In this document: positions 1-19,572 of the stretch, in pieces
Layout of the letters: every line of letters begins with the position of its first letter
How positions within the stretch are numbered: position 1 is the stretch's first letter
Source of the DNA: a virus
Taxonomy: Duplodnaviria > Heunggongvirae > Uroviricota > Caudoviricetes
IMG/VR virus record: IMGVR_UViG_2698536372_000019
Span: 1 to 41,997 of that record
Direction: 5' to 3' (one strand)
DNA length: 41,997 nt
The notes under the pieces: model-generated
Told to the model about the DNA's origin: nothing
The model's input: only the letters and a program-made list of their open reading frames with translations
Database searches by the model: none
Made by a program: the position numbers and the translations under genes

Positions 1-681
1 CGGTTGCTGTTCTTTTTGCCGGAAGTAGCTGTCTTCCAGTTTTTCAAAGAATGCCCATGCCTGATCGGTTTCGAGCATTTTAGCGTGGCGGGCTGCGCCG
101 CGTTCTGTCCAGAGGGTGAGTGAGCGAACATTGCGAGCAATTTTTACAGAGTAGTTTAAAGCTACTCTGTGCTTCAACTCGCGCAATGATTCTCCTTCAA
201 CTTTGAAAAAGTGCTTCCCTTCAACAAAGCGTACTTTGTTCTCATGATGATTTTGGCGAATACGGATTGTTTCTGTCCCATACCCTCTCGCAAGAGTCTC
301 GGTTGTCACTACACGCACTCCCTGCCATTCCAGAACGGGAATTTCATCAGACTGATTCTGAACAACCACCAGCTCCGATTCCTGAACTGAAGGTGCATGA
401 ATTTTTTCTAATTTAACGTTATTTGCTTTCATTCTGTGTGCCTCCTTGCGTGCTTCGGCTGCGACGGTTGCGTAATTCAGATGACCCTGTTCGAGCAGGT
501 ATTCGCGGATATCAGACAACAGGATACGGTGAACCGCGTTCTTGTCCTTTCTCCGGTAAAGTTGTTTGGTGATCATGAAGTAGTTGGCAATAACGCCAGG
601 TATATCCCTGGTGCTGATACAGATTGTGTGCTGTTCAATTGCCTCGATCATCTCTTCACGGGTGACTAATGACTTTCTCAT
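1..681 (-). CDS. ant: anti-repressor Ant, middle-domain variant M2, 5' part (3' end runs off the window start)
   Basis: ATG at 681-679 preceded by GGAGGG; translation MRKSLVTREEMIEAIEQHT...; shared 85-aa N-terminal domain, then ORF6N/Bro-N-like middle ...GYGTETIRIRQNHHENKVRFVEGKHFF, identical to the copy at 17462-18182. Confidence 0.7.
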   Translation of the reverse strand, partial: MRKSLVTREEMIEAIEQHTICISTRDIPGVIANYFMITKQLYRRKDKNAVHRILLSDIREYLLEQGHLNYATVAAEARKEAHRMKANNVKLEKIHAPSVQESELVVVQNQSDEIPVLEWQGVRVVTTETLARGYGTETIRIRQNHHENKVRFVEGKHFFKVEGESLRELKHRVALNYSVKIARNVRSLTLWTERGAARHAKMLETDQAWAFFEKLEDSYFRQKEQQP

Positions 682-899
682 AGTCCCTCCTGAGCAGAAG
701 CGTTAACAGGGAGGCACCAGTAACTGAGAGAATTGCGTGAATCAGTGGAAAAACGGGCAGAGAAAATACATGGGGCGTCAGGAAGCTGAGAGCGAGCCTC
801 ATCTTCTGTTGGTGCAATAACGAAGTGATAGTGACGTTTTTGGCAGGAGTAAAAGCGCCAGATAAATTCAGGATGAGTTGGGGTAGGGATAGTAGCCAT
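678..899 (-). CDS. icd: Icd-like 73-aa protein; stop overlaps the ant start (ATGA)
   Basis: 73-codon ORF MATIPTPTHPEFIWRFYSCQKRHYHF... with AGGAGG RBS; size and position match P1 icd as I recall it; the 187-aa six-frame ORF is an upstream over-extension. Confidence 0.5.
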   Translation of the reverse strand: MATIPTPTHPEFIWRFYSCQKRHYHFVIAPTEDEARSQLPDAPCIFSARFSTDSRNSLSYWCLPVNASAQEGL

Positions 900-959
900 A
901 TTGGCAGCCTCCTTAGACGTTGGTATGTAACCACCGCAGAAGAGACCAATCTTGCTGGC

Positions 960-1035
960 GGTGGACTGTACGGAGTTGGCCTTACTGGCGTCCAAGGTAA
1001 CCAGCCTACCCGAAGGTAGCCCCATACAGCCCACC
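960..1035 (-). ncRNA. c4: c4-like antisense RNA, allele T1 (76 nt, structured)
   Basis: closing stem GGUGGGCUGUAUGG / CCGUACAGUCCACC, internal CUACC-UUCG-GGUAG hairpin; segment CCUUGGACG complementary (one G-U) to CGUCUAAGG overlapping the icd RBS at 911-919. Confidence 0.45.
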
Positions 1036-1217
1036 ATTGTAGAGGTGTGCGTGTACGCCGATACAAAAAAAGACGCGAGCGGCGTCTGTATCGCCTTAGA
1101 CTTAAGCGGGAGGCCAATCCCGGCACCCGTTTTAATGAGGTGCCTGATAAGCATAAACCGAAAATGCCTCAAGGCGCAAGAGGTCAGGCTCAATGTAACA
1201 TCGGTAGTTAAAAAACA

Positions 1218-1234
1218 CAATTTATTAGAGCAAA
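1218..1234 (-). promoter_or_regulatory. C1 operator-like site (Op51-like), 15/17 to ATTGCTCTAATAAATTT
   Basis: plus strand reads CAATTTATTAGAGCAAA. Confidence 0.6.
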
Positions 1235-1281
1235 TATTCATTCATTAAGCCATGCCAGAGCTTCATCAACCTGCGCTTCGT

Positions 1282-1282
1282 N
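1282..1282. other. assembly junction J1 (single n)
   Basis: n separates a pacB 3'-end fragment from the KilAC region of the next ant copy; reading frame is lost across it. Confidence 0.9.
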
Positions 1283-2247
1283 GCGTTGATGTATTGCTGG
1301 AACGGCACATTTTTACGTCCACCGGACGCTATCAGGATGCCGTTCTCCCGTAACCAGGCAAACAACGCGTTTTGCTTAAGCCCAACAACCTTTGCAAAAT
1401 TTCCAATCAGGATCCCCTTGGCCACTGATACCCGGTCGGCAAAATCGACTTTAGGGGCGGCGGCCACCAGCTGCTGATTTAGCTGGTGGGCTTTCTGTTC
1501 CAGAAGTTGCTTTTGTTCAGCCAGTTCGGCAGCCAGGCGCAGAGCTTCGGGAAGCGTCTGGGGGATTGCGATCGGTTGCTGTTCTTTTTGTCGGAAGTAG
1601 CTGTCTTCCAGTTTTTCAAAGAATGCCCACGCTTCATTTGTGTCCACGATCTTAGACATGCGTGCCGCTCCGCGCTCGGCCCAGAGAATTACCTGACTTG
1701 TATATTTGCTAACCAAGTGACTAATAGTCACTAGCCTTTTAAATTCCTTTAATTTTGAACCAGTTAAGAGATAGTAATGCTTACCTTCTTCAAAGCGATC
1801 GGGGTTGCGAGACAAATTTTTACGAATATTCGCTTCATCGGTCCCATACCCTTTAGCAAGAGTCTCAGTTGTCACTACACGCACTCCCAGCCATTCCAGA
1901 ACGGGAATTTCATCAGACTGATTCTGAACAACCACCAGCTCCGATTCCTGAACTGAAGGTGCATGAATTTTCTCTGATTTAACGTTAGTTGCTTTCATTC
2001 TGTGTGCCTCCTTGCGTGCTTCGGCTGCGACGGTTGCGTAATTCAGATGACCCTGTTCGAGCAGGTATTCGCGGATATCAGACAACAGGATACGGTGAAC
2101 CGCGTTCTTGTCCTTTCTCCGGTAAAGTTGTTTGGTGATCATGAAGTAGTTGGCAATAACGCCAGGTATATCCCTGGTGCTGATACAGATTGTGTGCTGT
2201 TCAATTGCCTCGATCATCTCTTCACGGGTGACTAATGACTTTCTCAT
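1283..2247 (-). CDS. ant: anti-repressor Ant, variant M1a, 3'-truncated at J1
   Basis: ATG 2247-2245 with GGAGGG RBS; N-terminal domain, ORF6N-like middle ...GYGTDEANIRKNLSRNPDRFEEGKHYYLL..., KilAC-like C-terminal region cut at ...NVPFQQYIN. Confidence 0.75.
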
Positions 2248-2465
2248 AGTCCCTCCTGAGCAGAAGCGTTAACAGGGAGGCACCAGTAACTGAGAGAATT
2301 GCGTGAATCAGTGGAAAAACGGGCAGAGAAAATACATGGGGCGTCAGGAAGCTGAGAGCGAGCCTCATCTTCTGTTGGTGCAATAACGAAGTGATAGTGA
2401 CGTTTTTGGCAGGAGTAAAAGCGCCAGATAAATTCAGGATGAGTTGGGGTAGGGATAGTAGCCAT
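2244..2465 (-). CDS. icd: Icd-like 73-aa protein (copy adjacent to pacB)
   Basis: identical to 678-899. Confidence 0.5.
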   Translation of the reverse strand: MATIPTPTHPEFIWRFYSCQKRHYHFVIAPTEDEARSQLPDAPCIFSARFSTDSRNSLSYWCLPVNASAQEGL

Positions 2466-2525
2466 ATTGGCAGCCTCCTTAGACGTTGGTATGTAACCAC
2501 CGCAGAAGAGACCAATCTTGCTGGC

Positions 2526-2601
2526 GGTGGACTGTACGGAGTTGGCCTTACTGGCGTCCAAGGTAACCAGCCTACCCGAAGGTAGCCCCATACAGCCCAC
2601 C
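2526..2601 (-). ncRNA. c4: c4-like antisense RNA, allele T1 (copy adjacent to pacB)
   Basis: identical to 960-1035. Confidence 0.45.
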
Positions 2602-2629
2602 ATTGTAGAGGTGTGCGTGTACGCCGATA

Positions 2630-2652
2630 CAAAAAAAGACGCGAGCGGCGTC
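2630..2652 (-). terminator. hairpin GACGCCGCUCGCGUC followed by U7 on the minus strand, between pacB and c4
   Basis: read on minus strand; a second copy sits at 1064-1086; candidate -10 TACAAT lies just downstream of it on the minus strand. Confidence 0.4.
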
Positions 2653-2783
2653 TGTATCGCCTTAGACTTAAGCGGGAGGCCAATCCCGGCACCCGTTTTA
2701 ATGAGGTGCCTGATAAGCATAAACCGAAAATGCCTCAAGGCGCAAGAGGTCAGGCTCAATGTAACATCGGTAGTTAAAAAACA

Positions 2784-2800
2784 CAATTTATTAGAGCAAA
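2784..2800 (-). promoter_or_regulatory. C1 operator-like site immediately after the pacB stop
   Basis: CAATTTATTAGAGCAAA, 15/17 to consensus. Confidence 0.6.
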
Positions 2801-2803
2801 TAT

Positions 2804-4288
2804 TCATTCATTAAGCCATGCCAGAGCTTCATCAACCTGCGCTTCGTCTTCGACGCTAAGCACTTCATCTTGGGGAACATAGTTCGCCAACATAGCGAAA
2901 CAATATGTATCCCAATGGTCCGGTGAGTGCAGGTTGAGTTTTTTCTTCATATCTTCCTTTGACATCACCTTCCATTGACCTGCGGAATTTATCCCTACCG
3001 GTATCTTTGATGCTTCCTCTATAGTCGCAGCCCCCTTATCAAGCCGCATACGCCCTGATTTTACAGCTTCTGCCGCCTGAATATTCGCGAAAGCGCGCAT
3101 ATCGAAATAAAGGCTTTTATCTTCACGGCTGTGCATCTTTTTACCCCAGCGGATACGCTGGACGGTAATACCATAGCGTTCGTACATCAGATCAGCCGTC
3201 GATTTCCCCAAGCCATCGCCATCAATAGCTATGGTTATGTTCGGGAACCGTTCTGGGTTACATTCTGCGAAAATCTTGGCGGCTAACTGCGTTTCTGTAA
3301 CGTCTGTGTATTCCAGCATACGATAGTTGATTACACGGCGTTTATTTCGCTGGCCGGACACCATCATGATATTAATAACGGACTTATCTCGTCCTGTGCC
3401 ACCAGCAACGTCAACACATGCAACCCAGCCCCATCCTTTGGCAATCTTGACCTTTCGCCGCGTCGCCCGCTCAACCTCATCACGACCAAGAAGAAAGCCA
3501 TCTTGAGATTTGGGAAATTCACCACGTACTTTGATCATGTACATGGGGTTATCACGACCGCCATACTCCGCAAGTTTTGCTCGTATAAATTTTGCATCTA
3601 CAAGCGGAGATTCTTCACTATTCAGTATTATCGCAGTAAACAATCCATCAGGATTTCCCGGGCGAATAGCTAGTCTGTGGTGTGAATCGTAGAAATAGCC
3701 TGAAGGTCGCGTAGGCTGGGAAAGAAGCAGAATACGGTTATCCTTACCGGTCAGCGCACCTGTTATCACACTGAATGCTTTATCACTCACACCCGACGCT
3801 TCGTCGATGATATACAAGAGATGATCGGCGTGTTCACCAGCCAACGCCTCCTCATTTCCGGGGCGACAGGACTTTATCAATATTGTCCAAACACCCTTGC
3901 CAGTCACCTCAAAAAAAGACGTTTCTGTAAGAATGAAATACTTCGACAACCACGGGAATCTGCTAACAGCAGTAGCCCAATTGCTCTTTATGTATTTGAA
4001 AATACCATCAAGGACTTGCTGTCTTTTGTTAGCGACCAGAATAACGCGAGCGCCGGGGAAAAACATGATGAAGAGTATTGCAATGATACTCGTCATATCC
4101 GACTTACCAGTACCATGGCCGGAGGTCACACTTGTCCAACTGCCGTCCTGCTGCGTGGACTCAATGATCTCATCCTGCTGCCAGGTTGGTGTCTTCCCAA
4201 ACAACACATCAGCGGCCGCAATCCAGTCATAACGATATAGCGCCACCAGCTCGCGCCAACGTGGGTCCGTTACGCAACTTCTGGCCAT
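2804..4288 (-). CDS. pacB: terminase large subunit PacB (494 aa)
   Basis: Walker [10 protein letters not shown]; length and position after pacA as in P1. Confidence 0.9.
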
Positions 4289-5481
4289 TAATCATCATCC
4301 CCGTACAGTTTGCGGGTAACTTCTTCGTCTTCCTCCTCGTTTTCGTCCAGATCCTGTTCAAGCCATGCTTCGTTTGATATGCCTTCCGCATCGACATCAC
4401 CATAACCACCTGTATCGACGATATCGGCAATTTCTTCTCTACGATGCTCAATCCACAATGCGGCATCAGCGCGGCGGCTGGCGGCCCGTTCTCGCGCAAC
4501 TTTGTCCAGATCTTCAAGAGAAGGGCCACCGACGGCTGTTTGCCTTTCCTCATCATCGGTATTGGTCTTAGGAGCACGCAGATCGGCTTTGATTTGCTCC
4601 AGCATCAGGGGCGGAACTTTCCCACCATGCGCCTCGATGAATTCAGCTGCTTCCAGCACTGACCAGTTATTTTCACGCTTTCGTTCGTATGCCAGCTTAA
4701 CAATGCCAGCTTGCCCCATAGATAAAGCGTGCTTTTCCGCCTCCCGGCTTTCTTTTCGATAGTTATTCCGGATGCTGTAAATGGTGTTGATCAGACTGCT
4801 TATCTGCGCGGAACAGCTGTTTAGCATGCTCGCGATACGGTATTCAGGCGGAGTACCTTCATCATCGTCTTTTTGCTGATCGCGCATTTCCTGCACCAGG
4901 CGAATACACGTATCCCTGGCGTTCTCCAGCATAAGGAGATGAGAAAGAGACTTTTCAAGAAGAGTGGTTTCCAGAACATCGGCCCCGGACCGACGCAACA
5001 TAGCGCGCGCGGCCTTCCGCGCTTCAACGTTATCTATCAGGTAATCGCCAGCTTCGAATTCAAAGCGTTCACCATCATCATCCAGGGTGTCGCGTTCCAG
5101 GCGATCACGTAAGGTCCGGTGGGCGCGGGTGATCACGTCATGATCATCAGAACGATCATTTATGCGCTTATTTTGGCGCTTCGCATTCTCGACTGCGGCA
5201 CTGACAACGGCATTAACCCTTTGTTTTTCCGTTATTTCAGCCGCAATGTGATCACCTGCATGTTGATCATTAGAGTGATCAATGATCATGCTTTTTAGTG
5301 GCTTCCTGACTGGCTTATTTGGCTTGCGGCTGTCCGCTGTCCTGGTGTCTTCTTTGAAGGCACGGAGATAACGACGTGCAGTATTAGGGTTAAGATTAAA
5401 CTCGGCGGCATACTGTGCGATGGTGTAACCACCATCTCGCGCCAGGCGAGCAAAATTCTTCTTGTGATCGTCCCAGGTCAC
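4288..5481 (-). CDS. pacA: terminase small subunit PacA (397 aa), contains the pac site
   Basis: [39 protein letters not shown]...; acidic C-terminus; hexamer clusters inside the gene. Confidence 0.9.
5102..5288. other. pac: P1-type pac site: two clusters of four TGATCA/TGATCG hexamers, each containing GATC
   Basis: hexamers at 5102, 5130, 5141, 5153 and 5249, 5264, 5276, 5283, separated by about 90 bp. Confidence 0.85.
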
Positions 5482-5516
5482 TTATGCTTCCTTTCGTAAA
5501 AACTCTTTTTGACGCG

Positions 5517-5536
5517 AGGGTAACGAAAGTCACATG
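5517..5536 (-). promoter_or_regulatory. late-promoter-like element upstream of pacA (CATGTGACT, 5 nt, TACCCT)
   Basis: same motif and spacing as the three CAAGTGACT sites on the plus strand. Confidence 0.45.
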
Positions 5537-5566
5537 TCAAAAGGCCCGGAACGGGCAAGCAATCAA

Positions 5567-6019
5567 TCAGATACGTGCGGATGTGGCATTACCGTAATGA
5601 CGGTGCTGACGGGCCACCTTATTGAAAAGTTGACGCGCCATTACCCAAGGCTGGTGCTCCCGGCGTTCCTTTTCGTCCTGCGTCATATAGAGTTCGTTCT
5701 GGAGTTTTTCATCAAACCGGCGCGGAGCGCGGCTACGGCGAAAGAATTCAGGATTCAGAGAGTGGATCTGAAATCTACGTGGGCGTGTACTGTCATCAAT
5801 CAAAACAGACGAATACTTAGACACAGCGATAGCCTTTAAGCGCAGATAAACATCGCGCTTATCGACATCCAGATGCGGGTATTCCTTTTCAAGAATTGCT
5901 GCGAGTTCTTTCGCTGATAGAAGAGATTTAGTGCGGATCATGTAATCCGCAATCTCGTACGATGTTATTCGTGAGTGATTTATTTCCATGAAGTGGCGTC
6001 CCTGCCAGTTAAGTAACAT
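5567..6019 (-). CDS. lpa: late promoter activator Lpa (gp10-like, about 150 aa)
   Basis: position directly upstream of pacA and size as in P1; exact start not verified. Confidence 0.7.
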   Translation of the reverse strand: MLLNWQGRHFMEINHSRITSYEIADYMIRTKSLLSAKELAAILEKEYPHLDVDKRDVYLRLKAIAVSKYSSVLIDDSTRPRRFQIHSLNPEFFRRSRAPRRFDEKLQNELYMTQDEKERREHQPWVMARQLFNKVARQHRHYGNATSARI

Positions 6020-6089
6020 CCTGTCACCTACTGATTAGCCCATGTCAACTAATCAACGTGGAATATAATACCCTCGATTAAAGAAATAG

Positions 6090-6106
6090 CAATACATTAG
6101 AGCAAT
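6090..6106 (-). promoter_or_regulatory. C1 operator-like site upstream of lpa (14/17)
   Basis: CAATACATTAGAGCAAT on plus strand. Confidence 0.45.
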
Positions 6107-6107
6107 T

Positions 6108-7151
6108 TTATCTAACACTCGACGAGTGACTTGTGATAGCGCCGACTCCAAGCGCGTAATCAAAGAACAATCGTTGATGCATCGCCAGCCTACCGTGCGT
6201 CTTCTCCCAATTATCGCGGTCACGCTCAATATCACGCTGGCATGACTGGCACAGAGGAATTGCGTAAATGTCATGCGCGCATAATCGACTATGACGAACG
6301 ATATAAGGCGTAATGTGAGCGCCAGCTCCCGCCGCTCCACACCCACAGCATGGACGGGAAGCAACAAAGTCCATGTACTCAGGTAATTTTAGCGATTGCA
6401 GTTTTGGTATTTTGAAATGCGCCATGCCAGGGTCGGAGTCAACATCCACAGGGCATACTTTTGCACGCATCGGCGCGGCGCGTTCTTCCATCATCTGAAC
6501 ATATGCTGTAGCGCGATCGTCATACGGGCGAATATCCGCCTCTTTCAGAGGTCCGCTATCCTGCGTTGCGGCTTTCATCTTATTTATTGATATACGGCAA
6601 ACTTCTTCCGGCATCAGGTGCATCATGTTGCGCATGAAAGCCCACCAGCACAGTTCCTGAATACTTAAATCATGGCCATCTGAAAGCCCCATTTCCTGAC
6701 GGGCGACATCCAGTATCCAGTTAACGCGATTATTATGCAGCGTTTCTTTCAGCTCATTAAAACCACGCATCCGGTAATGGTTATCGTGATGCCAGCACAA
6801 CAACACCGCGCTATTGTCTCGTTCAGCGTGGACAATATGGTTGTCACACCAGCTACGATCTGCGGCCTGGCATTGCCCCTCTTTCCTGCGCAACCACGCC
6901 ACCAGCGCGTCAATTCCACCAATACGGCGAAACAGTTCATCGCTGTTAAAAAACGGCTGCAACGCCTCATTTGTTGCCATGGTTTGCTCGGTAACAACGA
7001 GGCCGTCTTCCATGTGCTCGATTAACTCACGCGGCACCGGCTCCATAATAAATTTACGGCCAGCCTCCACCAGCTTTCTGACCTCCTGATCCACTTTGAA
7101 CGTGGCGAGGCCAAGCTCTTTCTGTACAAAGGGAGTAATTACGGCTTTCAC
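6108..7151 (-). CDS. hypothetical 347-aa protein with C-terminal Cys/His-rich motif (P1 pdcB position)
   Basis: long ORF; CCGCG...H...C..C..C motif near C-terminus. Confidence 0.55.
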
Positions 7152-7178
7152 ATCACACCTTTAATCACTGATTGGGCT

Positions 7179-7379
7179 TTATCTGCTGCCCGGCATTCTC
7201 TGTTTAAGCACTACCATTTCCTGACGGCATAACACAGCAATAGCGGTCCTGGCACCAATTTGCTTACCAACCAGGTATTGCTTTACCTCGCGGCGACTCA
7301 CGCCATCAAGAAGCATCTTTAACGCTTCACGGGACAATTTGTTGTATTTGCGTGCCATTAATCTACTCCGCAGAACCAT
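7179..7379 (-). CDS. small basic protein, possible HTH (P1 pdcA position)
   Basis: 59-66 aa ORF immediately downstream of doc. Confidence 0.4.
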
Positions 7380-7743
7380 ACAATCTACGTAACGTGTCGG
7401 CGACAGAAGATACAGATATCTCTCCGGTCGCAGCCCCTACGGTAAGGTCTGCCAGTTCAGGTGAATCAAATACCTGCACCCCGTTACGGCGTAGAAATAA
7501 CAGCGCACTGTTTAGCGCGGTACGCTTATTGGCATCATTGAATATATGCCCTCTCGCTGTAGCCACCAGGTAGGTGGCGGAGACTTCGAAAAGGTCGGTG
7601 ATCTCTTCGTAGGCAACTCTGGCCTGAACTCTCCCGATAATGGCCTCTGCCCTACCCGGATCTGACATTCCCGGCAGGCCGCCGTAGCGGTTTATATTCG
7701 CATCATGAAGCGCAATAAGTTCTTCCGGTGATATATGCCTCAT
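7363..7743 (-). CDS. doc: Doc toxin (Fic-fold kinase), 126 aa
   Basis: [17 protein letters not shown]...[10 protein letters not shown]... matches P1 Doc as I recall it, including the Doc-type Fic motif. Confidence 0.95.
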
Positions 7744-7964
7744 TATCGGTTAACCAGTTCCTTGTTGGTGGAGTCCAGGGTGTCAAACAGGGATGCAAAT
7801 TCAGCATCCAGCGCCGCTTTTTTGTAGGCTTCGAAAGTAGCCTTGCTGACAATTACTGCTGGCTCACGGCCTCTGCGGGTGATTTCAACCTCTTCCCCGG
7901 CTTCAACATTGTTGAGCACTTCAGAAAGGTTGCCACGCGCGGTACGGAAGTTAATGGATTGCAT
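7743..7964 (-). CDS. phd: Phd antitoxin, 73 aa; stop overlaps the doc start
   Basis: [73 protein letters not shown]. Confidence 0.95.
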
Positions 7965-8036
7965 AAACACCTCGTGTACTCGTTATGTGTACACAATTAT
8001 AAACTTCACAGGCATAAAGCACCAGCACTTTGCAGC

Positions 8037-8426
8037 TTAAATCACCGGACAATCATCAAATTCCCCACTTCGGGCATCATTGATGACATGAGTGATCACA
8101 CCAAAAACAGCATTACTACCCGTGTAACCATCGTCATCTACTGGTAACGCCTCTTTCTTCCCGGTGCTTAAATCCTCCAGGTGCTGGCGCGGATACTTCC
8201 TGTATCTCTTTATGCGATATTCACCCTCCATAGCGCACACAAGCAGAGAACCATCAACCGGAGTAAGCGAGGAATCAACCACCAGCAAAGCACCCTGCAA
8301 TATTCCCTCACGGTGATGGCTATCAGCTGCCCGCATGAAGTAGGTTGCTGATGGATGTCTAATTATCTGCTGATCAAGAGAAATTCGGCTTTCAACATAA
8401 TCCGCCGCAGGAGAAGGGAAACCCAT
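8037..8426 (-). CDS. humD: HumD, UmuD'-like SOS mutagenesis protein (129 aa)
   Basis: S24 LexA/UmuD-like C-terminal domain; LexA box about 20 bp upstream. Confidence 0.8.
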   Translation of the reverse strand: MGFPSPAADYVESRISLDQQIIRHPSATYFMRAADSHHREGILQGALLVVDSSLTPVDGSLLVCAMEGEYRIKRYRKYPRQHLEDLSTGKKEALPVDDDGYTGSNAVFGVITHVINDARSGEFDDCPVI

Positions 8427-8446
8427 AGCGTTTTACCTCAAAAATA

Positions 8447-8462
8447 CTGTTTATCTGTACAG
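8447..8462. promoter_or_regulatory. LexA box CTGTTTATCTGTACAG (perfect CTGT-N8-ACAG)
   Basis: read directly; sits between divergent humD and the 8601 ORF. Confidence 0.8.
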
Positions 8463-8600
8463 TATACATTAAAGAAGCACCTTTGGTGCAAACGCGTTAT
8501 GTACATCAACCACCGCTGATGATTTTTGTGCGCTTTGCTACTATTCATCACCGCGGGATCAGCGTAACCTCGTTGCCAATCAGTTAATAAGGAATTAGCT

Positions 8601-8936
8601 ATGCCTAATCGCATTCCTCTCGATCCTGTATTGCCCAAAAATTTTGACTGCACTCCTAACGAGAAACGCTCTAAAGCTCAGCTGGACGCCTGGTGGGACC
8701 ATCCCTATGGGGTTACAGAACATGACGGGAAAATTGTTGTTTATTGTCTGAATGGTGGCGCGTGGGACCGTCCATCCGTGCTTGGTTTGGCAAATAACTA
8801 TGATGAAGCCTGTGAACTTGCCGAAAGACAGCAGGCAAGCTGGGTAAAAACACGGTCTGAACCGACATTCATGTTTTCAAAAGAACCGCCATTTATACTG
8901 GCGAGGATGCCGCAGCGACCGGATCATCAACAATAA
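8601..8936 (+). CDS. hypothetical 111-aa protein divergent from humD (possibly LexA-regulated)
   Basis: RBS TAAGGAA before ATG. Confidence 0.55.
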   Translation: MPNRIPLDPVLPKNFDCTPNEKRSKAQLDAWWDHPYGVTEHDGKIVVYCLNGGAWDRPSVLGLANNYDEACELAERQQASWVKTRSEPTFMFSKEPPFILARMPQRPDHQQ

Positions 8937-8966
8937 ATTGTTGCTGAATTTTCCTCAAGGGATGAG

Positions 8967-9182
8967 ATGAATCTCTTCTCATTAAAGCAGGAAGAAAGGG
9001 ATCGCGTCGAAGTGTCTCCAACTCTCGACCACAACCGGATGAACCTGGCCCAACTCGCCTGGTACAGCAAAGAATTAGAGATGTCTATTGCCCGACTTGA
9101 AAACGAAAAAGCCGCTATCCAAGCCCAGCATGAAGTAGTTCTGAACCGGATTAGAGAAATGCAAAACGATAATAGAGGCTAA
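8967..9182 (+). CDS. hypothetical 71-aa coiled-coil protein
   Basis: RBS AAGGGA; no similarity to theta/HolE that I can see. Confidence 0.4.
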   Translation: MNLFSLKQEERDRVEVSPTLDHNRMNLAQLAWYSKELEMSIARLENEKAAIQAQHEVVLNRIREMQNDNRG

Positions 9183-9242
9183 ATCGAGGTAGAAAACACA
9201 TTGTTTAAGGCCACTAATTGTGGCCTCAAAGGGGAGAGATGC

Positions 9243-9767
9243 TTATTGGCTATGGCTAAAAATCAAATGAGACACTTCATGTGGTTGTAGCTCGTCAAGA
9301 TCCGGGGCCACAAAACCTTTTCCGAAAGACTTCACAAGTAATTCACCAGCCGCATCATTGTCACCTATTACACGAAAGTCATACGGCAGCATCGCAAGTT
9401 GACGGCGTAATCCTGCGGAGAAAGTCGAACCTAACAGCGCCCACGAATTGCCGCCCGCGTTGTGTACAGCTGCGCTCTTAAAAATAGACTCAGTTATCCA
9501 TATTGGGCCATCTTTTAAAGGAAGATAGGTTCCCCAAAGTAACTGTCTGCCATGTGATCGCGTGAAATACCGGGCCATCTTCGGATTGCTATGCTGCTTA
9601 GGAGCACCTGGTCTATATGTCTGATACCCAGCCAACATCCCATCAAACCTGTATAGAGGGAATGTAACTACTCCTTCACTTTCATCGATCCACTGTCTAT
9701 ATGGGTGTATATCATGGCGGTAGTTACGAGTTAGCAAATGAGCTTCCAGCTTTCCAAATTTTGTCAT
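9243..9767 (-). CDS. Toprim-like protein (174 aa)
   Basis: ITESIF and VIGDNDAAGE (DxD) motifs; ATG overlaps the stop of the upstream gene (ATGA). Confidence 0.45.
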   Translation of the reverse strand: MTKFGKLEAHLLTRNYRHDIHPYRQWIDESEGVVTFPLYRFDGMLAGYQTYRPGAPKQHSNPKMARYFTRSHGRQLLWGTYLPLKDGPIWITESIFKSAAVHNAGGNSWALLGSTFSAGLRRQLAMLPYDFRVIGDNDAAGELLVKSFGKGFVAPDLDELQPHEVSHLIFSHSQ

Positions 9768-10069
9768 ATTCCGTTCTTCCTGCATACTGGGCATGTGTTC
9801 TCTGTGAAATATGGGAAACTATTATCCAGCTCATCTACCCACTGTTTATGGTCGAAGCAGAAAAATATCTCCCACGGCATTCCATATTCTTCCATCCATA
9901 GGCGGATCTGCATTTCTATTGGAATCGGCGGTATTGCAGACACCATATCAACAGGATAACAGTTCAGACGACGTTCCAGTTCTTCTACTCTCTTCTGGAG
10001 ATGAAATATCCGATCCAGATGCACACGCCGCTCCCGTGCCATTTTAAAATAAAGCTCGCCGGTCATCAT
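9764..10069 (-). CDS. small coiled-coil/zinc-ribbon protein, paralog A (101 aa)
   Basis: C-terminal W..F.C.DH..W.DELD.SFPYF.E..CP.CR shared with 10069-10353; TAATG coupling. Confidence 0.5.
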   Translation of the reverse strand: MMTGELYFKMARERRVHLDRIFHLQKRVEELERRLNCYPVDMVSAIPPIPIEMQIRLWMEEYGMPWEIFFCFDHKQWVDELDNSFPYFTENTCPVCRKNGI

Positions 10070-10353
10070 TAACTCCTACATTCAGGGCAAGAGTTCCCTT
10101 CCGCAAAATAGGGGAAACTGCTATCAAGCTCATCACACCATCTGCGATGGTCGTAGCACCAAAACGCCTCCCACGGTGCACGGAAATACTTCATCCACCA
10201 GGACACTCGATCAGGTATATCTGCTGGTGGCAGCTCTTCTGGCAATAATTTGCCTGATAATTCCCTTTCCGCCCGCGCCAGCATTCCTTTTAGACTCGCA
10301 TTCTCTTTTTCAAGAATATCTATGCGCGCCTGTAACTCAGCTTTCGTTGGCAT
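10069..10353 (-). CDS. small coiled-coil/zinc-ribbon protein, paralog B (94 aa from internal Met)
   Basis: ...WEAFWCYDHRRWCDELDSSFPYFAEGNSCPECRS; the first 27 codons of the six-frame ORF are probably not translated. Confidence 0.5.
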   Translation of the reverse strand: MPTKAELQARIDILEKENASLKGMLARAERELSGKLLPEELPPADIPDRVSWWMKYFRAPWEAFWCYDHRRWCDELDSSFPYFAEGNSCPECRS

Positions 10354-10540
10354 GGTCCGCCTCATGCTTTTCAGCCACCAGCGGCAATAAAGCCCTGGCC
10401 ATCTTATGAACCAACAGAGCATCGATAATGCCAAGCGTATGCCCCGGCTTAATGTTTAATGCCGCCTCAAGGTGACACCTTTCCAGGTCACTTTTCTCGG
10501 CTTGTTTATGATGGTCTGGCGTAATAACGTCGCCCAAAAC
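10337..10540 (-). CDS. 3' end of a gene truncated by the N-run
   Basis: ...PGHTLGIIDALLVHKMARALLPLVAEKHEADHANES; upstream part lost in the gap. Confidence 0.35.
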   Translation of the reverse strand, partial: VLGDVITPDHHKQAEKSDLERCHLEAALNIKPGHTLGIIDALLVHKMARALLPLVAEKHEADHANES

Positions 10541-10557
10541 NNNNNNNNNNNNNNNNN
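10541..10557. other. assembly gap J2 (17 N)
   Basis: N-run placed 3 codons before the expected ant stop. Confidence 0.95.
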
Positions 10558-11582
10558 GCTACTGGTTTTAACAAACCAGCATCAAGTAGCTTGCGAGTTA
10601 ACCACTGCTGGCCTTTACCCGTTAATTGGGGCGTCAGCCGTATCTGGTAACCATCTTCATCATCCAGCACCACTTCTTTCACCGTGAAATACCCGGCGTT
10701 GATGTACTGCTGGAACGGCACATTTTTACGTCCACCGGACGCTATCAGGATGCCGTTCCCCCGTAACCAGGCAAACAACGCGTTTTGCTTAAGCCCAACA
10801 ACCTTTGCAAAATTTCCAATCAGGATCCCCTTGGCCCCTGATACCCGGTCGGCAAAATCGACTTTAGGGGCGGCGGCCACCAGCTGTTGTTCCAACTGCA
10901 TTTTCTGTTCTGCCAACTCGGCAGCCAGGCGCAGTGCTTCGGGGAGTGTTTGGGGGATCGCTGGAGAAGCCGTGCTAGCCTGCTGCAATTCTTCCAGTTT
11001 GTCGATCAGCGAACGGCGGACCGCTTTTGACTCGCGCGCGGCGACTCGCAGGGCTTGTTTGAAAGTCATGGTGATAATGTCTATGTTTGCACCATTTTTG
11101 CGACCTACACTTTTTGTGTAGGTCTCACCTTCAAGCTCATCTACAACCTTCTCAATAAACTTATTATTTCTTACTAATGGTTCCCCACATAACTTACGCG
11201 CCTCATTAACCATCTTTAACAGCGTCTGGCTGTCGATTGTGTCTCCGGTGTTGGGGATAGCATCCATGACCGGTGCTGGTGTGGTTGCTGTCAAAGGCTT
11301 TGTAACGACAACATCTGGTTTGCTTGCTTTCATTCTGTGTGCCTCCTTGCGTGCTTCGGCTGCGACGGTTGCGTAATTCAGATGACCCTGTTCGAGCAGG
11401 TATTCGCGGATATCAGACAACAGGATACGGTGAACCGCGTTCTTGTCCTTTCTCCGGTAAAGTTGTTTGGTGATCATGAAGTAGTTGGCAATAACGCCTG
11501 GTATATCCCTGGTGCTGATACAGGCAGTGTGCTGTTCAATTGCCTCGATCATCTCTTCACGGGTGACTAATGACGTTCTCAT
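10558..11582 (-). CDS. ant: anti-repressor Ant, variant M3 (AntA-like middle domain), nearly complete
   Basis: N-terminal MRTSLVTREEMIEAIEQHTACIST..., distinct middle ...LLKMVNEARKLCGEPLVRNNKFIEKV..., KilAC-like C-terminus ...LTRKLLDAGLLKPV. Confidence 0.75.
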
Positions 11583-11800
11583 AGCCCCTCCTGAACAGAA
11601 GCGTTAACAGGGAGGCACCAGTAACTGAGAGAATTGCGCGAGTCAGTAGAAAAGCGTGCGGAGAAAATGCAGGGAGCATCCGGAAGCTGAGAACGTGCCT
11701 CATCTTCTGTTGGTGCGATAACGAAGTGATAGTGGCGTTTCTGGCAGGAGTAAAAGCGCCAGATAAATTCAGGGCGTGCGCAAGGATTGGCATTAACCAT
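11579..11800 (-). CDS. icd: Icd-like 73-aa protein, allele T2 (MVNANPCARPEF...)
   Basis: 73 codons, overlaps ant start; N-terminus differs from the T1 allele. Confidence 0.45.
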   Translation of the reverse strand: MVNANPCARPEFIWRFYSCQKRHYHFVIAPTEDEARSQLPDAPCIFSARFSTDSRNSLSYWCLPVNASVQEGL

Positions 11801-12050
11801 AGTTACGGCCTCACAATCAGGTTTAACAACCTGCTACCCGCTGTCNNNTCAGTAGAAAAGCGTGCGGAGAAAATGCAGGGAGCATCCGGAAGCTGAGAAC
11901 GTGCCTCATCTTCTGTCGGTGCAATAACGAAGTGATAGTGGCGTTTCTGGCAGGAGTAAAAGCGCCAGATAAATTCAGGGCGTGCGCAAGGATTGGCATT
12001 AACCATAGTTACGGCCTCACAATCAGGTTTAACAACCTGCTACCCGCTGC
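11640..12050. repeat. about 206-bp unit present twice, separated by NNN (11846-11848)
   Basis: direct duplication of the icd-prime region flanking an N-run (J3); likely assembly artefact. Confidence 0.7.
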
Positions 12051-12127
12051 TAAACAGGTGGCAGGACGTGACGGGGTTAGCAGACTGGCGATTGTGAAAC
12101 CAGCAGGCCGAAGCCTCCCCATCACGC
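12051..12127 (-). ncRNA. c4: c4-like antisense RNA, allele T2 (77 nt)
   Basis: same closing stem and UUCG hairpin as T1; internal segments UCACAAUC and CUGCUAA complementary to 12084-12091 and 12071-12077 partners (see finding). Confidence 0.45.
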
Positions 12128-12306
12128 CCCACCATAATTTGGGCGTAACGCGGTTTTACGGACACAAAAATACCGCAATATCGGATATCTGCGGCTGTCC
12201 GCACAATCATTCAGGCTGCTAAACCCGGTCGCAGAATTTGCTACGACGTAGGAACTATAAGCCTGAACAACAGGAAGATCAATAGTCTGGCGTCCAATAG
12301 TAGTTT

Positions 12307-12340
12307 ATTTGCCCCAATAAATCAAATTTATTAGAGCAAT
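12307..12340. promoter_or_regulatory. bipartite C1 operator: degenerate left half plus perfect site AAATTTATTAGAGCAAT (12324-12340)
   Basis: 17/17 match to reverse complement of consensus. Confidence 0.7.
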
Positions 12341-12450
12341 AACAATCTGGTTGAATGTTTCCTCTCTGAGGTTGCAATGTGCACACTTAGTGTATTATTT
12401 GTATGCACTAATAAATATATTATTTTTAATAATAAATAATTGACAACTGA

Positions 12451-12470
12451 CAAGTGACTTCAGTCAAAAT
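12451..12470 (+). promoter_or_regulatory. late-promoter-like element CAAGTGACT, 5 nt, CAAAAT
   Basis: conserved motif and spacing shared with 13781, 36264 and (minus strand) 5528. Confidence 0.5.
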
Positions 12471-12600
12471 CATCACACGCCCGGTACGGATGGATCCCTT
12501 TTCAAATATTCCATGGACGGCACAGTCTGAGTACCGGGCGCTACCTTCAGTTGTATTGCTAAGCCGCCGCTGGTGGCTTTTCTTTTTTGTAGGGGGAGCT

Positions 12601-13242
12601 ATGGATAAGAAAATATGCGTTGTTTCGATGAGCGTCGGCAAACCGGCGTCAATGACTGCTGCATGGATCAACAATGAGCTGATCATGGCTGAGCGGACCA
12701 GCTACCCTGAACGCCGCCGCGATATGGAACTCCAGCTTCTGCGCGAATTGCGAGAAAAAGAGGAAAAGGGTTTTATCGTGCTGGTGGAAGAGGAAAACAG
12801 CTTTATTACCGGTCGAGTTGGCCAGCGTGTAAGGTTGCGCGATCCCTTCATGAACGGCAGGCCGGTACTAATTGAAGCAATGCAGATTTACAAGGAGCTG
12901 GAACGCCAGAAAGCGATCAAGTTACCGCGCAAGGAATCCGGCAAATACATCCTCCACCAAAGCATCTTCGATTCCGAACACGATAAAAAAGGCGATGAAT
13001 TTTTCAACATCAACTGGAGCGAAATAACAACAGAGCATGTTCTGACATTGTTATGCTGTTTCGCAACGGAATACAACAATGTTGCCAGCGCCGACTACAT
13101 CAGGGCAATGGCTGGAGAAGTTGAGGCCCGCCAGGAACCATCGTTACTAAGACCTCTGATTAACATAATTCACGGAACCCAAACACTGGCGCAAAAACAA
13201 GTACCACAAGGGGAATTGACGGGTAAAGGTAATTATCTCTGA
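12601..13242 (+). CDS. hypothetical late protein (213 aa)
   Basis: ATG with AGGGGGAG RBS; the six-frame ORF start at 12454 is rejected. Confidence 0.55.
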   Translation: MDKKICVVSMSVGKPASMTAAWINNELIMAERTSYPERRRDMELQLLRELREKEEKGFIVLVEEENSFITGRVGQRVRLRDPFMNGRPVLIEAMQIYKELERQKAIKLPRKESGKYILHQSIFDSEHDKKGDEFFNINWSEITTEHVLTLLCCFATEYNNVASADYIRAMAGEVEARQEPSLLRPLINIIHGTQTLAQKQVPQGELTGKGNYL

Positions 13243-13281
13243 AAGATGCCCGGCGATAGACCGGGCAAAAGGGCGGAAAGT

Positions 13282-13530
13282 TTAATCTGCATTCAGGAGC
13301 AATGCGTTATCTATGATGATCTGCTCCCATTCTTCGAATGCCCGATCGCGGACCCCCTGGGGAACACTGTTTGTTTTGAAATCAACGACTGTCCGCCATT
13401 TCCCGTCCGGACGGTACATGCGCAGAGCTTTACTGCCCCCTTCCCTTCGCACCTCAACGTTATGCTTGTCAGCAAACTCTTGTAATGCTCGTAGCGTCCC
13501 ATGCTTTACTGTGTAGTATCGCTTTTTCAA
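13282..13530 (-). CDS. small 82-aa protein, weak HicA-like pattern, TTG start
   Basis: GGAGAG RBS before TTG; ...RREGGSKALRMYRPDGKWRTVVDF...; convergent with the 12601 gene. Confidence 0.35.
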   Translation of the reverse strand: MKKRYYTVKHGTLRALQEFADKHNVEVRREGGSKALRMYRPDGKWRTVVDFKTNSVPQGVRDRAFEEWEQIIIDNALLLNAD

Positions 13531-13780
13531 GTTTTCTCTCCAGCCTGTGCCAAGGCTTTGACGTCGAAATTATGTCCTATTCGGTTTTATTGTATCAGAT
13601 AGTGTGGACATATTATTTCACGTCCGGCGTAGTCGGTCATAGCTTTTGCCTTCCACCTTTTCCACGCCGTATCTAATCGGCGCCCGATGAAATGTTATTG
13701 CACTAATATATTTCAATATTTCGCTGACACTTGAACAGCGAAACACCCCCATAGATAGCTTGTTCATTGGTAATCCTTAA

Positions 13781-13800
13781 CAAGTGACTAGTGTTAAATT
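13781..13800 (+). promoter_or_regulatory. late-promoter-like element CAAGTGACT, 5 nt, TAAATT
   Basis: upstream of the portal-like gene. Confidence 0.5.
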
Positions 13801-13833
13801 CCGTTCAAACACGATGCGAATTATTCTAATTAA

Positions 13834-16564
<2,731 letters not shown>

Positions 16565-16569
16565 CCACC

Positions 16570-16632
16570 AAAAATAACCCCGGCGGCTGCCGGGGTATCT
16601 GAAATCACTGGCGGCCGAAAGGCCGCCTTTTT
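16570..16632. terminator. back-to-back rho-independent terminators
   Basis: plus strand GGCGGCCGAAAGGCCGCC + T5 (16610-16632); minus strand CCCCGGCAGCCGCCGGGG + T-rich (16570-16594). Confidence 0.65.
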
Positions 16633-16639
16633 AATTTAA

Positions 16640-17055
16640 TCACTCAGCCGCTACTGGTTTTAACAAACCAGCATCAAGTAGCTTGCGAGTTAACCACTGC
16701 TGGCCTTTACCCGTTAATTGGGGCGTCAGCCGTATCTGGTAACCATCTTCATCATCCAGCACCACTTCTTTCACCGTGAAATACCCGGCGTTGATGTACT
16801 GCTGGAACGGCACATTTTTACGTCCACCGGACGCTATCAGGATGCCGTTCCCCCGTAACCAGGCAAACAACGCGTTTTGCTTAAGCCCAACAACCTTTGC
16901 AAAATTTCCAATCAGGATCCCCTTAGCCACTGATACCCGGTCGGCAAAATCGACCTTAGGGGCGGCGGCCACCAGCTGCTGATTTAGCTGGTGGGCTTTC
17001 TGTTCCAGAAGTTGCTTTTGTTCAGCCAGTTCGGCAGCCAGGCGCAGAGCTTCGG
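16640..17055 (-). CDS. ant: Ant C-terminal (KilAC-like) fragment, 5'-truncated by the N-run
   Basis: ...AAPKVDFADRVSVAKGILIGNFAKVVGLKQNALFAWLR...KPVAAE stop. Confidence 0.6.
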
Positions 17056-17066
17056 NNNNNNNNNNN
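17056..17066. other. assembly gap J4 (11 N)
   Basis: sequence on the two sides is unrelated. Confidence 0.95.
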
Positions 17067-17220
17067 GCTGAACATTTTGTGATGAATGCAACGGAGGAGG
17101 AAGCGCGGCGAGGGCTTACTAGAGTGATGGCGGAATTTGGCGAACTCCTGGGTAAGGTAAACAATGCCCTTTCAATCAGTTCAGCAAGATCCAAAGCGTT
17201 AACAGCTTCCATGATGAAAT
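17067..17220 (+). pseudogene. orphan 3' end of an unidentified gene (...MAEFGELLGKVNNALSISSARSKALTASMMK stop)
   Basis: open frame enters from the N-run and ends at TAA 17218-17220. Confidence 0.3.
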
Positions 17221-17221
17221 A

Positions 17222-17247
17222 AAAAAGCCTGGCAAGGAGCCAGGCTG
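17222..17247 (-). terminator. hairpin AGCCUGG-CUCCUUG-CCAGGCU followed by a U-run on the minus strand
   Basis: read directly. Confidence 0.5.
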
Positions 17248-17352
17248 CACAAAAGAGCGGGTTTGTATTCCGCATCCAATCAATCAAGAAAGAGTATAGC
17301 ACACAGGTACTGAAGTGAAAAAATGTGATTCTCGATTAACAAAATATCTACC

Positions 17353-17376
17353 ATTGCTCTAATTGATTGCTATAAT
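17353..17376 (+). promoter_or_regulatory. C1 operator-like site (14/17) overlapping a TATAAT -10
   Basis: ATTGCTCTAATTGATTG then CTATAAT. Confidence 0.45.
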
Positions 17377-17436
17377 TGAGCCGCAGTTTTTGTCAACTAC
17401 GAAGACGTTGCCATTATAGACTCCGTGACATCATTG

Positions 17437-17460
17437 GCGGCCGAAAGGCCGCCTTTTTTA
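17437..17460 (+). terminator. GGCGGCCGAAAGGCCGCC + T6
   Basis: same hairpin as at 16610. Confidence 0.6.
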
Positions 17461-17461
17461 A

Positions 17462-18182
17462 TCATTCAGCCGCCACCGGTTTTAACAAGCCAGCTTCGAG
17501 CAGTTTACGCGTCAACCACTGCTGGCCTTTACCCGTTAATTGGGGCGTCAGCCGTATCTGGTAACCATCTTCATCATCCAGCACCACTTCTTTCACCGTG
17601 AAATACCCGGCGTTGATGTATTGCTGGAACGGCACATTTTTACGTCCACCGGACGCTATCAGGATGCCGTTCTCCCGTAACCAGGCAAACAACGCGTTTT
17701 GCTTAAGCCCAACAACCTTTGCAAAATTTCCAATCAGGATCCCCTTGGCCACTGATACCCGGTCGGCAAAATCGACTTTAGGGGCGGCGGCCACCAGCTG
17801 CTGATTTAGCTGGTGGGCTTTCTGTTCCAGAAGTTGCTTTTGTTCAGCCAGTTCGGCAGCCAGGCGCAGAGCTTCTGGAAGCGTCTGGGGGATTGCAACC
17901 GGTTGCTGTTCTTTTTGCCGGAAGTAGCTGTCTTCCAGTTTTTCAAAGAATGCCCATGCCTGATCGGTTTCGAGCATTTTAGCGTGGCGGGCTGCGCCGC
18001 GTTCTGTCCAGAGGGTGAGTGAGCGAACATTGCGAGCAATTTTTACAGAGTAGTTTAAAGCTACTCTGTGCTTCAACTCGCGCAATGATTCTCCTTCAAC
18101 TTTGAAAAAGTGCTTCCCTTCAACAAAGCGTACTTTGTTCTCATGATGATTTTGGCGAATACGGATTGTTTCTGTCCCATAC
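17462..18182 (-). CDS. ant: anti-repressor Ant, variant M2, 3' part (5'-truncated at J5)
   Basis: ...TETIRIRQNHHENKVRFVEGKHFFKVEGESLRELKH... through the KilAC-like domain to the stop; overlaps in sequence with the 5' part at 1-290. Confidence 0.7.
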
Positions 18183-18183
18183 N
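18183..18183. other. assembly junction J5 (single n)
   Basis: frame and homology break inside ant. Confidence 0.9.
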
Positions 18184-19227
18184 ACCCGTTAATTGGGGCG
18201 TCAGCCGTATCTGGTAACCATCTTCATCATCCAGCACCACTTCTTTCACCGTGAAATACCCGGCGTTGATGTACTGCTGGAACGGCACATTTTTACGTCC
18301 ACCGGACGCTATCAGGATGCCGTTCCCCCGTAACCAGGCAAACAACGCGTTTTGCTTAAGCCCAACAACCTTTGCAAAATTTCCAATCAGGATCCCCTTA
18401 GCCACTGATACCCGGTCGGCAAAATCGACCTTAGGGGCGGCGGCCACCAGCTGCTGATTTAGCTGGTGGGCTTTCTGTTCCAGAAGTTGCTTTTGTTCAG
18501 CCAGCTCGGCAGCCAGGCGCAGAGCTTCGGGAAGCGTCTGAGGGATTGCGATCGGTTGCTGTTCTTTTTGCCGGAAGTAGCTGTCTTCCAGTTTTTCAAA
18601 GAATGCCCATGCCTGATCGGTTTCGATCATTTTAGCGTGGCGGGCTGCGCCGCGTTCCGTCCAGAGAGTGAGGTTTCTGGCGTTCTTACCAACAGAGTTA
18701 CTAAAAGTAACTCTGTTCTTAAATTCCTTTAATTTTGAACCAGTTAAAAGAAAGTAGTGTTTACCTTCTTCAAAGCGATCGGAGTTGCAAGACAAATTTT
18801 TACGAATATTGCCTTCATCGGTTCCGTACCCCTTAGCAAGAGTTTCGGTTGTTACGACACGTACTCCCTGCCATTCCAGAACGGGAATTTCATCAGACTG
18901 ATTCTGAACAACCACCATCTCCGATTCCTGAACTGAAGGTGCATGAATTTTTTCTGATTTAACGTTAGTTGCTTTCATTCTGTGTGCCTCCTTGCGTGCT
19001 TCGGCTGCGACGGTTGCGTAATTCAGATGACCCTGTTCGAGCAGGTATTCGCGGATATCAGACAACAGGATACGGTGAACCGCGTTCTTGTCCTTTCTCC
19101 GGTAAAGTTGTTTGGTGATCATGAAGTAGTTGGCAATAACGCCTGGTATATCCCTGGTGCTGATACAGGCAGTGTGCTGTTCAATTGCCTCGATCATCTC
19201 TTCACGGGTGACTAATGACGTTCTCAT
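18184..19227 (-). CDS. ant: anti-repressor Ant, variant M1b, 3'-truncated at J5
   Basis: MRTSLVTREEMIEAIEQHTACIST...; ORF6N-like middle; KilAC-like region ends at ...LTPQLTG. Confidence 0.75.
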
Positions 19228-19445
19228 AGCCCCTCCTGAACAGAAGCGTTAACAGGGAGGCACCAGTAACTGAGAGAATTGCGCGAGTCAGTAGAAAAGC
19301 GTGCGGAGAAAATGCAGGGAGCATCCGGAAGCTGAGAACGTGCCTCATCTTCTGTCGGTGCAATAACGAAGTGATAGTGGCGTTTCTGGCAGGAGTAAAA
19401 GCGCCAGATAAATTCTTGGCGTGCGCAAGGATTGGCATTAACCAT
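19224..19445 (-). CDS. icd: Icd-like 73-aa protein, allele T3
   Basis: MVNANPCARQEF...; overlaps ant start. Confidence 0.45.
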   Translation of the reverse strand: MVNANPCARQEFIWRFYSCQKRHYHFVIAPTEDEARSQLPDAPCIFSARFSTDSRNSLSYWCLPVNASVQEGL

Positions 19446-19495
19446 AGTTACGGCCTCATGTACAGGTTTAACAACCTGCTACCCGCTGTCAAACA

Positions 19496-19572
19496 GGTGG
19501 CAGGACGTGACGGGGTTGACAGACTGGCGTACATGAAACCAGCAGGCCGAAGCCTCCCCATCACGCCCCACC
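19496..19572 (-). ncRNA. c4: c4-like antisense RNA, allele T3 (77 nt)
   Basis: differs from T2 only in two short segments that co-vary with the icd leader. Confidence 0.45.

Follow-up and report, generated by a model that had tools for sequence, protein, structure and literature searches.

The window, a 41,997-nt stretch of virus DNA (Caudoviricetes; IMG/VR record IMGVR_UViG_2698536372_000019, positions 1–41,997), carries several broken copies of the gene ant interrupted by runs of N, which raises the question of whether the gene order across these gaps is that of a real genome. An earlier note had listed five N-runs, and we recover all of them: 1282 (J1, 1 N), 10541–10557 (J2, 17 N), 11846–11848 (J3, 3 N), 17056–17066 (J4, 11 N) and 18183 (J5, 1 N). 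They separate the segments S1 (1–1281), S2 (1283–10540), S3 (10558–11845), S4 (11849–17055), S5 (17067–18182) and S6 (18184–41997). The scaffold is very probably an assembly artefact, misjoined at the repeated c4–icd–ant cassettes of a P1-like Escherichia phage-plasmid.

Breaks within the ant genes

We located the breaks relative to the ant domains from Pfam matches and translations, which bear out the earlier claim that four of the N-runs interrupt ant reading frames: every ant ORF that spans an N-run, four in total, is either cut short or continues into unrelated sequence. At J1, the break in the ant of S2 falls within the KilAC domain (PF03374; profile position 67 of 108), and across the gap the end of S1 consists of the icd–pacB spacer and the final 44 nt of pacB. 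At J2, the ant of S3 is missing its final three codons and stop, and the end of S2 is a unique 226-aa gene interrupted mid-way. The ant 3′ fragment at the end of S4 is broken at J4 in a conserved linker, 24 codons upstream of KilAC, and the start of S5 is cre-side intergenic DNA whose match in the reference lies upstream of the ref gene; the scaffold thereby runs from an ant 3′ fragment beside pro into cre-side intergenic DNA. The ant of S5 ends on the left of J5 inside an ORF6N centre (allele b), and on the right the ant of S6 is a different allele (c), broken at KilAC profile position 94 of 108.

The placing of the breaks within or at the end of KilAC therefore stands for J1, J2 and the right side of J5, but not for J4, which lies in the linker, or for the left side of J5, which lies in ORF6N. 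The proposal that the joins were made at repeats does not fit the left of J2, where the broken DNA is unique. The far side is unrelated DNA at J1, J2 and J4 and another ant allele at J5, as had been proposed. The direct duplication noticed at the fifth N-run is also real in the scaffold: J3 falls in icd and separates two copies of a 201-bp stretch (11643–11843 and 11849–12049), which differ by two internal mismatches. Homology switches coincide exactly with the N-runs, both single Ns included. Ant-homologous DNA makes up 11.6% of the window, so that at least four of five random sites would fall within it with a probability of ~8e-4; the corresponding value for all five sites falling within cassette DNA, which makes up 16.9%, is ~1.4e-4.

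Repeated cassettes of the immI type

Judged by their sequence, the repeats are genuine P1 immI-type cassettes, composed of a C1 operator, a C4 antisense RNA, icd and ant, and Ant is predicted to be an antirepressor by its homology to P1 Ant1. All of them lie on the minus strand. The cassette in S1 (1–1234) contains the N-terminus and centre of ant allele b (1–681), icd (678–899, open to 1241), a C4 RNA (954–1041), an isrK-like RNA (1066–1143) and a C1 operator (1218–1234). Its counterpart on the pacB side of S2 (1283–2800) contains a 3′-truncated ant of allele a (1283–2247), icd (2244–2465, open to 2807), C4 (2520–2607), an isrK-like RNA (2632–2709) and an operator (2784–2800). S3 and the left end of S4 together hold a cassette at 10558–12340, with ant allele d, which lacks ORF6N (10558–11582), icd (11579–11800), C4 (12054–12139), a1/b1 targets (12208–12260) and an operator (12324–12340). 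The ban-side cassette of S6 (18184–19778) has ant allele c without its final 22 codons and stop (18184–19227), icd (19224–19445), C4 (19493–19578), a1/b1 targets (19646–19698) and an operator (19762–19778). Two further pieces, on the same strand, complete the set: an ant 3′ fragment beside pro in S4 (16640–17055), comprising the linker and a complete KilAC with a terminator-like hairpin directly downstream (~16607–16635), and S5 (17067–18182), in which 17067–17459 is cre-side intergenic DNA and 17462–18182 the 3′ end and centre of ant allele b.

The C4 antisense RNA (RF01695) is matched four times, upstream of icd, at 70–76 bits against a gathering score of 45. The a1/b1 targets (RF03163) are matched upstream of c4 in two of the cassettes, and in both pacB-side copies (S1 and S2) an isrK match occupies that position. 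By sequence match, a putative C1 operator marks the 5′ edge of each cassette; its consensus, ATTGCTCTAATAAATTT, has eight matches in the window against 0.01 expected, with no mismatches at 12324 and 19762 and two at 1218 and 2784. The icd ORFs at 11579 and 19224 each encode 73 aa and overlap the start of ant, and the ORF at 2247–2807 matches Phage_ASH in Pfam (E = 2e-11), such ORFs being annotated as Icd-like in the references. KilAC is present in all five ant 3′ parts. Allele d is 78% identical to P1 Ant1 and allele c 53%, and the window as a whole holds four distinct ant centres (alleles a, b, c and d) and four copies of C4.

This arrangement is like that of P1 immI (Oc4 operator–c4–icd–ant1/ant2), whose order and strand logic the window cassettes keep, from the C1 operator through the a1/b1 targets, matched in two of them, the C4 RNA and an icd overlapping the start of ant to an ant that ends in KilAC. 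The window differs in that the annotation of P1 shows a single such unit, next to kilA–repL, whereas at least four are present here, at other sites. In three of the window's ant alleles, moreover, ORF6N replaces the P1-type centre (53% identity to Ant1), and the pacB-side copies have the isrK-like RNA where the other two cassettes have a1/b1 matches. Extra icd–ant insertions are found in the P1-like plasmids RCS47, pTZ20_1P, pSvP1, pO111_2 and NZ_CP013030.1. A cassette placed between c1 and pacB is a feature shared with RCS47 and pTZ20_1P (PMC6906374), and closed P1-like plasmids carry further cassettes beside pro, ban and cre. A single closed plasmid holds three to five, at separate sites: NZ_CP045829.1 has three and NZ_CP013030.1 four, and in pO111_2 a cassette occupies another site again, next to cre. 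The presence of multiple immI-type antirepressor cassettes in one P1-like plasmid is thus apparent from closed genomes and has been remarked on before in the literature. In the closed records each cassette is intact with unique flanks; in the window, by contrast, the cassettes are broken and their flanks permuted.

Gene order in closed plasmids and alternative joins

We searched 72,556 closed plasmids for the flanks of J1, J2 and J4 and for the J3 duplication; at J5 both flanks are repeats. No closed plasmid has the J1 flanks adjacent in scaffold order, and none contains the two together; with the junction itself as query (the 3′ end of pacB followed by the 3′ part of ant), none of 680 matching records covers at least 80% of it. 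The nearest match instead shows the natural order, which is the reverse: c1 / ant remnant / pacB. A real tandem duplication of ant–icd beside pacB was also considered, but the junction that it requires, from the pacB 3′ end to the ant 3′ part, is absent at this coverage from the plasmids searched. The J2 flanks occur together in none of the 72,556 plasmids and the J4 flanks in none in scaffold order; where the latter co-occur, they are ~810 nt apart and, by coordinate arithmetic, in the opposite order. Among the matches listed, the J3 duplication is absent and closed plasmids carry its sequence once. Past 10540, six independent IMG/VR contigs and both closed references run into DNA that is missing from the window, namely ~17 kb of late genes.

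Redundant sequence lies at the segment ends. The end of S5 (17900–18182) is identical to the start of S1 (1–283) over 283 bp, S1 464–1281 is identical to S2 2030–2847 over 818 bp, and S4 ends in 347 bp that agree with the start of S6 except for one mismatch (99.7%). Joining S5 (17067–18182) to S1 (1–1281) restores an intact Ant of 372 aa, and joining S4 (11849–17055) to S6 (18184 onward) restores one of 370 aa; both restored proteins end in the canonical LLKPVAAE. In 210 closed plasmids the ant-to-pacB part of the S5–S1 join is uninterrupted, with identities of up to 99.1%. Only the ant part of S5 belongs beside pacB, and we rejected the placement of the whole segment there. Its left 393 bp adjoin an ant in pO111-type plasmids, so that S5 may itself be chimeric or derive from a fifth cassette site. 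For the S4–S6 join, the pro / ant–icd–C4 stretch runs uninterrupted in 37 closed plasmids, none of which reaches the 332-aa ORF, and no closed plasmid shows the architecture that the join would produce, pro / cassette / 332-aa ORF–ban; this join is therefore not established, despite the restored ORF. A simple inversion between two cassettes was also rejected, since it would require S5 to be on the other side of S4. At J3, S3 and S4 differ at two internal positions where their ends overlap, so that this overlap, too, may join two paralogous copies of icd.

Origin of the scaffold order

Five independent lines of indirect evidence support the earlier view that the gene order across the N-runs is unreliable and that the scaffold was joined at ant repeats: the broken ORFs and domains, the absent adjacencies, the missing DNA of relatives, the redundant ends and the joins that restore Ant. 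From these observations we infer an assembly mechanism in which the source genome would carry at least four dispersed immI-type cassettes that share near-identical blocks of ~0.3–0.8 kb (the ant N-terminus with icd, and the linker with KilAC) around a variable centre. The assembler would have been unable to pass these blocks, so that contigs ended inside them, and a scaffolder or gap-closer would then have linked the contigs by short N-runs, with overlaps unmerged and redundant copies still in place. Such a process would account for four N-runs at which ant is chimeric or truncated, for a false duplication of 201 bp at J3 and for a false tandem repeat of 1566 bp at the window's left end, and it would explain why a block (10558–18182) sits where the ~17 kb of late genes should be.

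The window resembles repeat-induced misjoins and false duplications at gaps in its contig ends within repeats, its short N-runs flanked by unmerged overlaps and its variant contigs in tandem; a literature search on false duplications made by gap-closers returned nothing specific.

The earlier note had also raised a mixed population or more than one P1-like element, in which case allelic contigs of one locus would have been strung in tandem, a situation that may co-occur with misjoining. Ant alleles b (in S1 and S5) and a (in S2) are both contiguous with an identical icd–spacer–pacB end, although each of the two closed references examined in full has a single pacB with one adjoining cassette, and the two mismatches within the 201 bp at J3 would also suit two templates. 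Yet the shared 818 bp are 100% identical, against the ~1–2% by which related plasmids differ from the window around this stretch, so that one molecule used twice fits better than two diverged elements. We found no unique backbone gene twice in the window, and plasmids of the P1 type that belong to the same incompatibility group do not usually coexist. Since single closed plasmids hold three to five cassettes, the four ant centres and four C4 copies call for no second element, and this part of the earlier proposal, which retains the two alleles at one pacB end in its favor, appears unlikely. There is a small chance that the four to five cassettes, with their common ends and exchangeable centres, recombine or gene-convert often, one culture then comprising several structural isomers and combinations of ant alleles; on that view such heterogeneity, rather than repeat length, would have produced the two alleles at the pacB junction and the broken assembly.

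It is more improbable still that the scaffold order is true, that is, that the window represents a defective P1-like plasmid that has undergone rearrangement, its ant genes truncated and in tandem and 17 kb of late genes deleted, the Ns being low-quality bases. Defective P1-like plasmids with large deletions have been described (PMC6906374), and homologous recombination could plausibly act on the cassettes, whose sites vary among closed plasmids. Against this, homology switches exactly at even the two single Ns, exact redundancies flank the gaps, and none of the J1–J4 arrangements was found in scaffold order in the plasmids searched. The breaks on the two sides, moreover, fall at non-homologous positions and so are not products of homologous recombination.

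Misjoining at the cassettes thus remains our preferred reading. The joins across the N-runs are not credible, and the order between 1 and ~19800 should not be trusted: the tandem ant genes, the ant fusions and the icd duplication in this interval are best not taken as biology, nor is the placement of portal/pro beside pdc–lxr-side genes. The ~17 kb of late genes, together with c1, cre and lyz, must sit elsewhere in the assembly. A point against the mechanism is that a plain de Bruijn assembler does not usually leave an exact redundancy of 818 bp, which points to some step of gap closing or overlap. The finding is a quality flag: the scaffold order is best read as an ordinary assembly artefact, with no new biology.

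Repeated immunity cassettes in a P1-like element

The window is DNA of an Escherichia phage-plasmid of the P1-like type (Punavirus): positions 1240–10540 match pacB-pacA-lpa-pdcB-doc-phd-humD-lxr of P1, and positions 21000–41997 match P1 from dmt through repA-par to the tail sheath region. We confirmed five N-runs where the earlier note had placed them, at 1282, 10541–10557, 11846–11848, 17056–17066 and 18183 (1, 17, 3, 11 and 1 nt), which separate segments S1 (1–1281), S2 (1283–10540), S3 (10558–11845), S4 (11849–17055), S5 (17067–18182) and S6 (18184–41997).

In a self-comparison of the window, every N-run is touched by dispersed repeats that, judged by their content, appear to be real functional units, namely immI-type cassettes on the minus strand. 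Their 5′ edges carry matches to the C1 operator (1218, 2784, 12324 and 19762), of which the window holds 8 against 0.01 expected. Four Rfam matches to the C4 antisense RNA, an icd gene identified via Phage_ASH, and ant follow the part order annotated for P1 immI. Two copies carry the a1/b1 target element upstream of C4; at that place both pacB-side copies have a match to the Hfq-binding RNA isrK (RF01394, 60.8 bits; 1066–1143 and 2632–2709, minus strand). The icd frame of these pacB-side copies is open for 187 aa (2244–2807 and 678–1241, minus strand), with its ATG overlapping the pacB stop codon (ATGA), whereas the closed references annotate only 73 aa; the frame could encode an extended product or be a mere open frame across the C4 region. 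A GC-rich hairpin followed by a T-run (GGCGGCCGAAAGGCCGCC TTTTT), the same at 16607–16635 and 17433–17461, is located shortly after the stop codons of two ant genes and looks like a terminator marking the 3′ boundary of the cassette. Operator matches also occur outside the cassettes, at 13697–13713, 29947–29963 and, as an overlapping inverted pair, 25391–25418.

The Ant proteins are mosaics. The first 86 residues and the linker with the KilAC C terminus are nearly identical across all copies, and the centre is variable, with an ORF6N domain in alleles a (S2), b (S1/S5) and c (S6) and a P1-type centre without ORF6N in allele d (S3). P1 Ant1 is 78% identical to allele d and 53% to allele c.

Many cassettes can reside on one element. 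The closed plasmid NZ_CP045829.1 has three, at immI, between lyz and pro and between c1 and pacB; NZ_CP013030.1 has these three and a fourth between the late genes and ban; and pO111_2 shows one further site, between the cre-side hypothetical gene and the next. Additional icd-ant copies inserted between c1 and pacB, and others in the res-mod region, have already been described (PMC6906374). Adjacencies within contigs probably represent real architectures: the S5 junction of a hypothetical gene with ant is present in 38 closed plasmids, and the S6 junction of the cassette with a 332-aa ORF and ban in nine.

Scaffold order across the N-runs

The proposal that the scaffold was joined at ant repeats, leaving gene order unreliable, is supported. 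Every ant ORF that runs across an N-run, four in all, is either cut short or fused to unrelated sequence, and four or more of five sites would fall in ant by chance with P of about 8e-4. At 1282, the S2 ant is cut at KilAC profile position 67/108 and faces the last 44 nt of pacB. At 10541–10557, the S3 ant, intact but for the final three codons and the stop, meets a unique 226-aa gene with its last 67 codons remaining. The pro-side ant at 17056–17066 is cut 24 codons upstream of KilAC, opposite cre-side intergenic DNA, and at 18183 allele b, cut inside ORF6N, abuts allele c, cut at KilAC position 94/108. The earlier note was right that ant is broken at these four sites, but its placement of the breaks within or at the end of the KilAC-like region does not apply at 17056–17066 or to the left of 18183. 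The fifth N-run lies inside icd, and the direct duplication that had been noted there is a 201-bp stretch on both sides.

We searched 72,556 closed plasmids with queries joining 150 nt from each side. The flanks of 1282 and those of 10541–10557 never occurred together in one record; the nearest match to the former is a natural arrangement in the opposite order, c1, ant remnant, pacB. The flanks of 17056–17066 co-occurred only about 810 nt apart and, by coordinate arithmetic, in opposite order. Among the matches listed, the 300-nt query across 11846–11848 collapses onto about 200 nt, so that this sequence is present once. At the position corresponding to 10540, both closed references and six independent draft contigs carry on without a break into late-gene DNA that the window lacks. 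Relatives become collinear with the window again only at 19832, so that about 17 kb of late genes and morphogenesis genes are missing, with 10558–18182 in their place. No match to c1 or cre exists in the window, and none of the mapped segments showed the lyz flank that should adjoin the pro-side cassette; these and the late genes must lie on other contigs of the assembly.

Overlapping ends and alternative joins

The segment ends overlap: 17900–18182 equals 1–283 (100%), 16709–17055 differs from 18184–18530 by one mismatch, and the S3 end matches the S4 start except at two internal sites. When S5 is joined to S1, and S4 to S6, intact Ant proteins result, 372 and 370 aa long. The ant-to-pacB part of S5–S1 is contiguous in 210 closed plasmids (up to 99.1% identity), and the S4–S6 architecture is found in none. 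The left part of S5 belongs beside cre; its ant part best matches the pacB-side cassette. Given the broken ant ORFs, the adjacencies absent from closed plasmids, the relatives continuing past 10540, the overlapping ends and the joins that restore Ant, the scaffold order is not credible, and the sequence evidence supports reading the junctions as artefacts of assembly at immunity cassettes that are already known and truly present in several copies.

Alleles a and b both run into an identical pacB end, as they would if either a second element or a subpopulation had contributed to the assembly. The 100% identity of 464–1281 and 2030–2847, over 818 bp, instead favours a single locus used twice by the assembler, and this identity yields a false 1566-bp tandem repeat. 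The ant fusions, duplications and gene order from 1 to about 19800 should not be interpreted biologically.

Other loci in S6

The 332-aa ORF (19825–20823, minus strand) lies between the ban-side cassette and a DnaB-like helicase and has weak similarity to glycosyltransferase group 1 (25 bits, slightly under the 26.4 that Pfam requires). Two stretches, 26521–26948 and 32301–33793, have no match in either of two closed references and look like variable cargo sites; the latter sits where the references have the repA/GIY-YIG nuclease region. Four tRNA genes (Met-CAT, Thr-TGT, Tyr-GTA and Asn-GTT) occupy 22468–24735 on the minus strand. P1 is credited with three, and the Tyr gene may be extra relative to P1.
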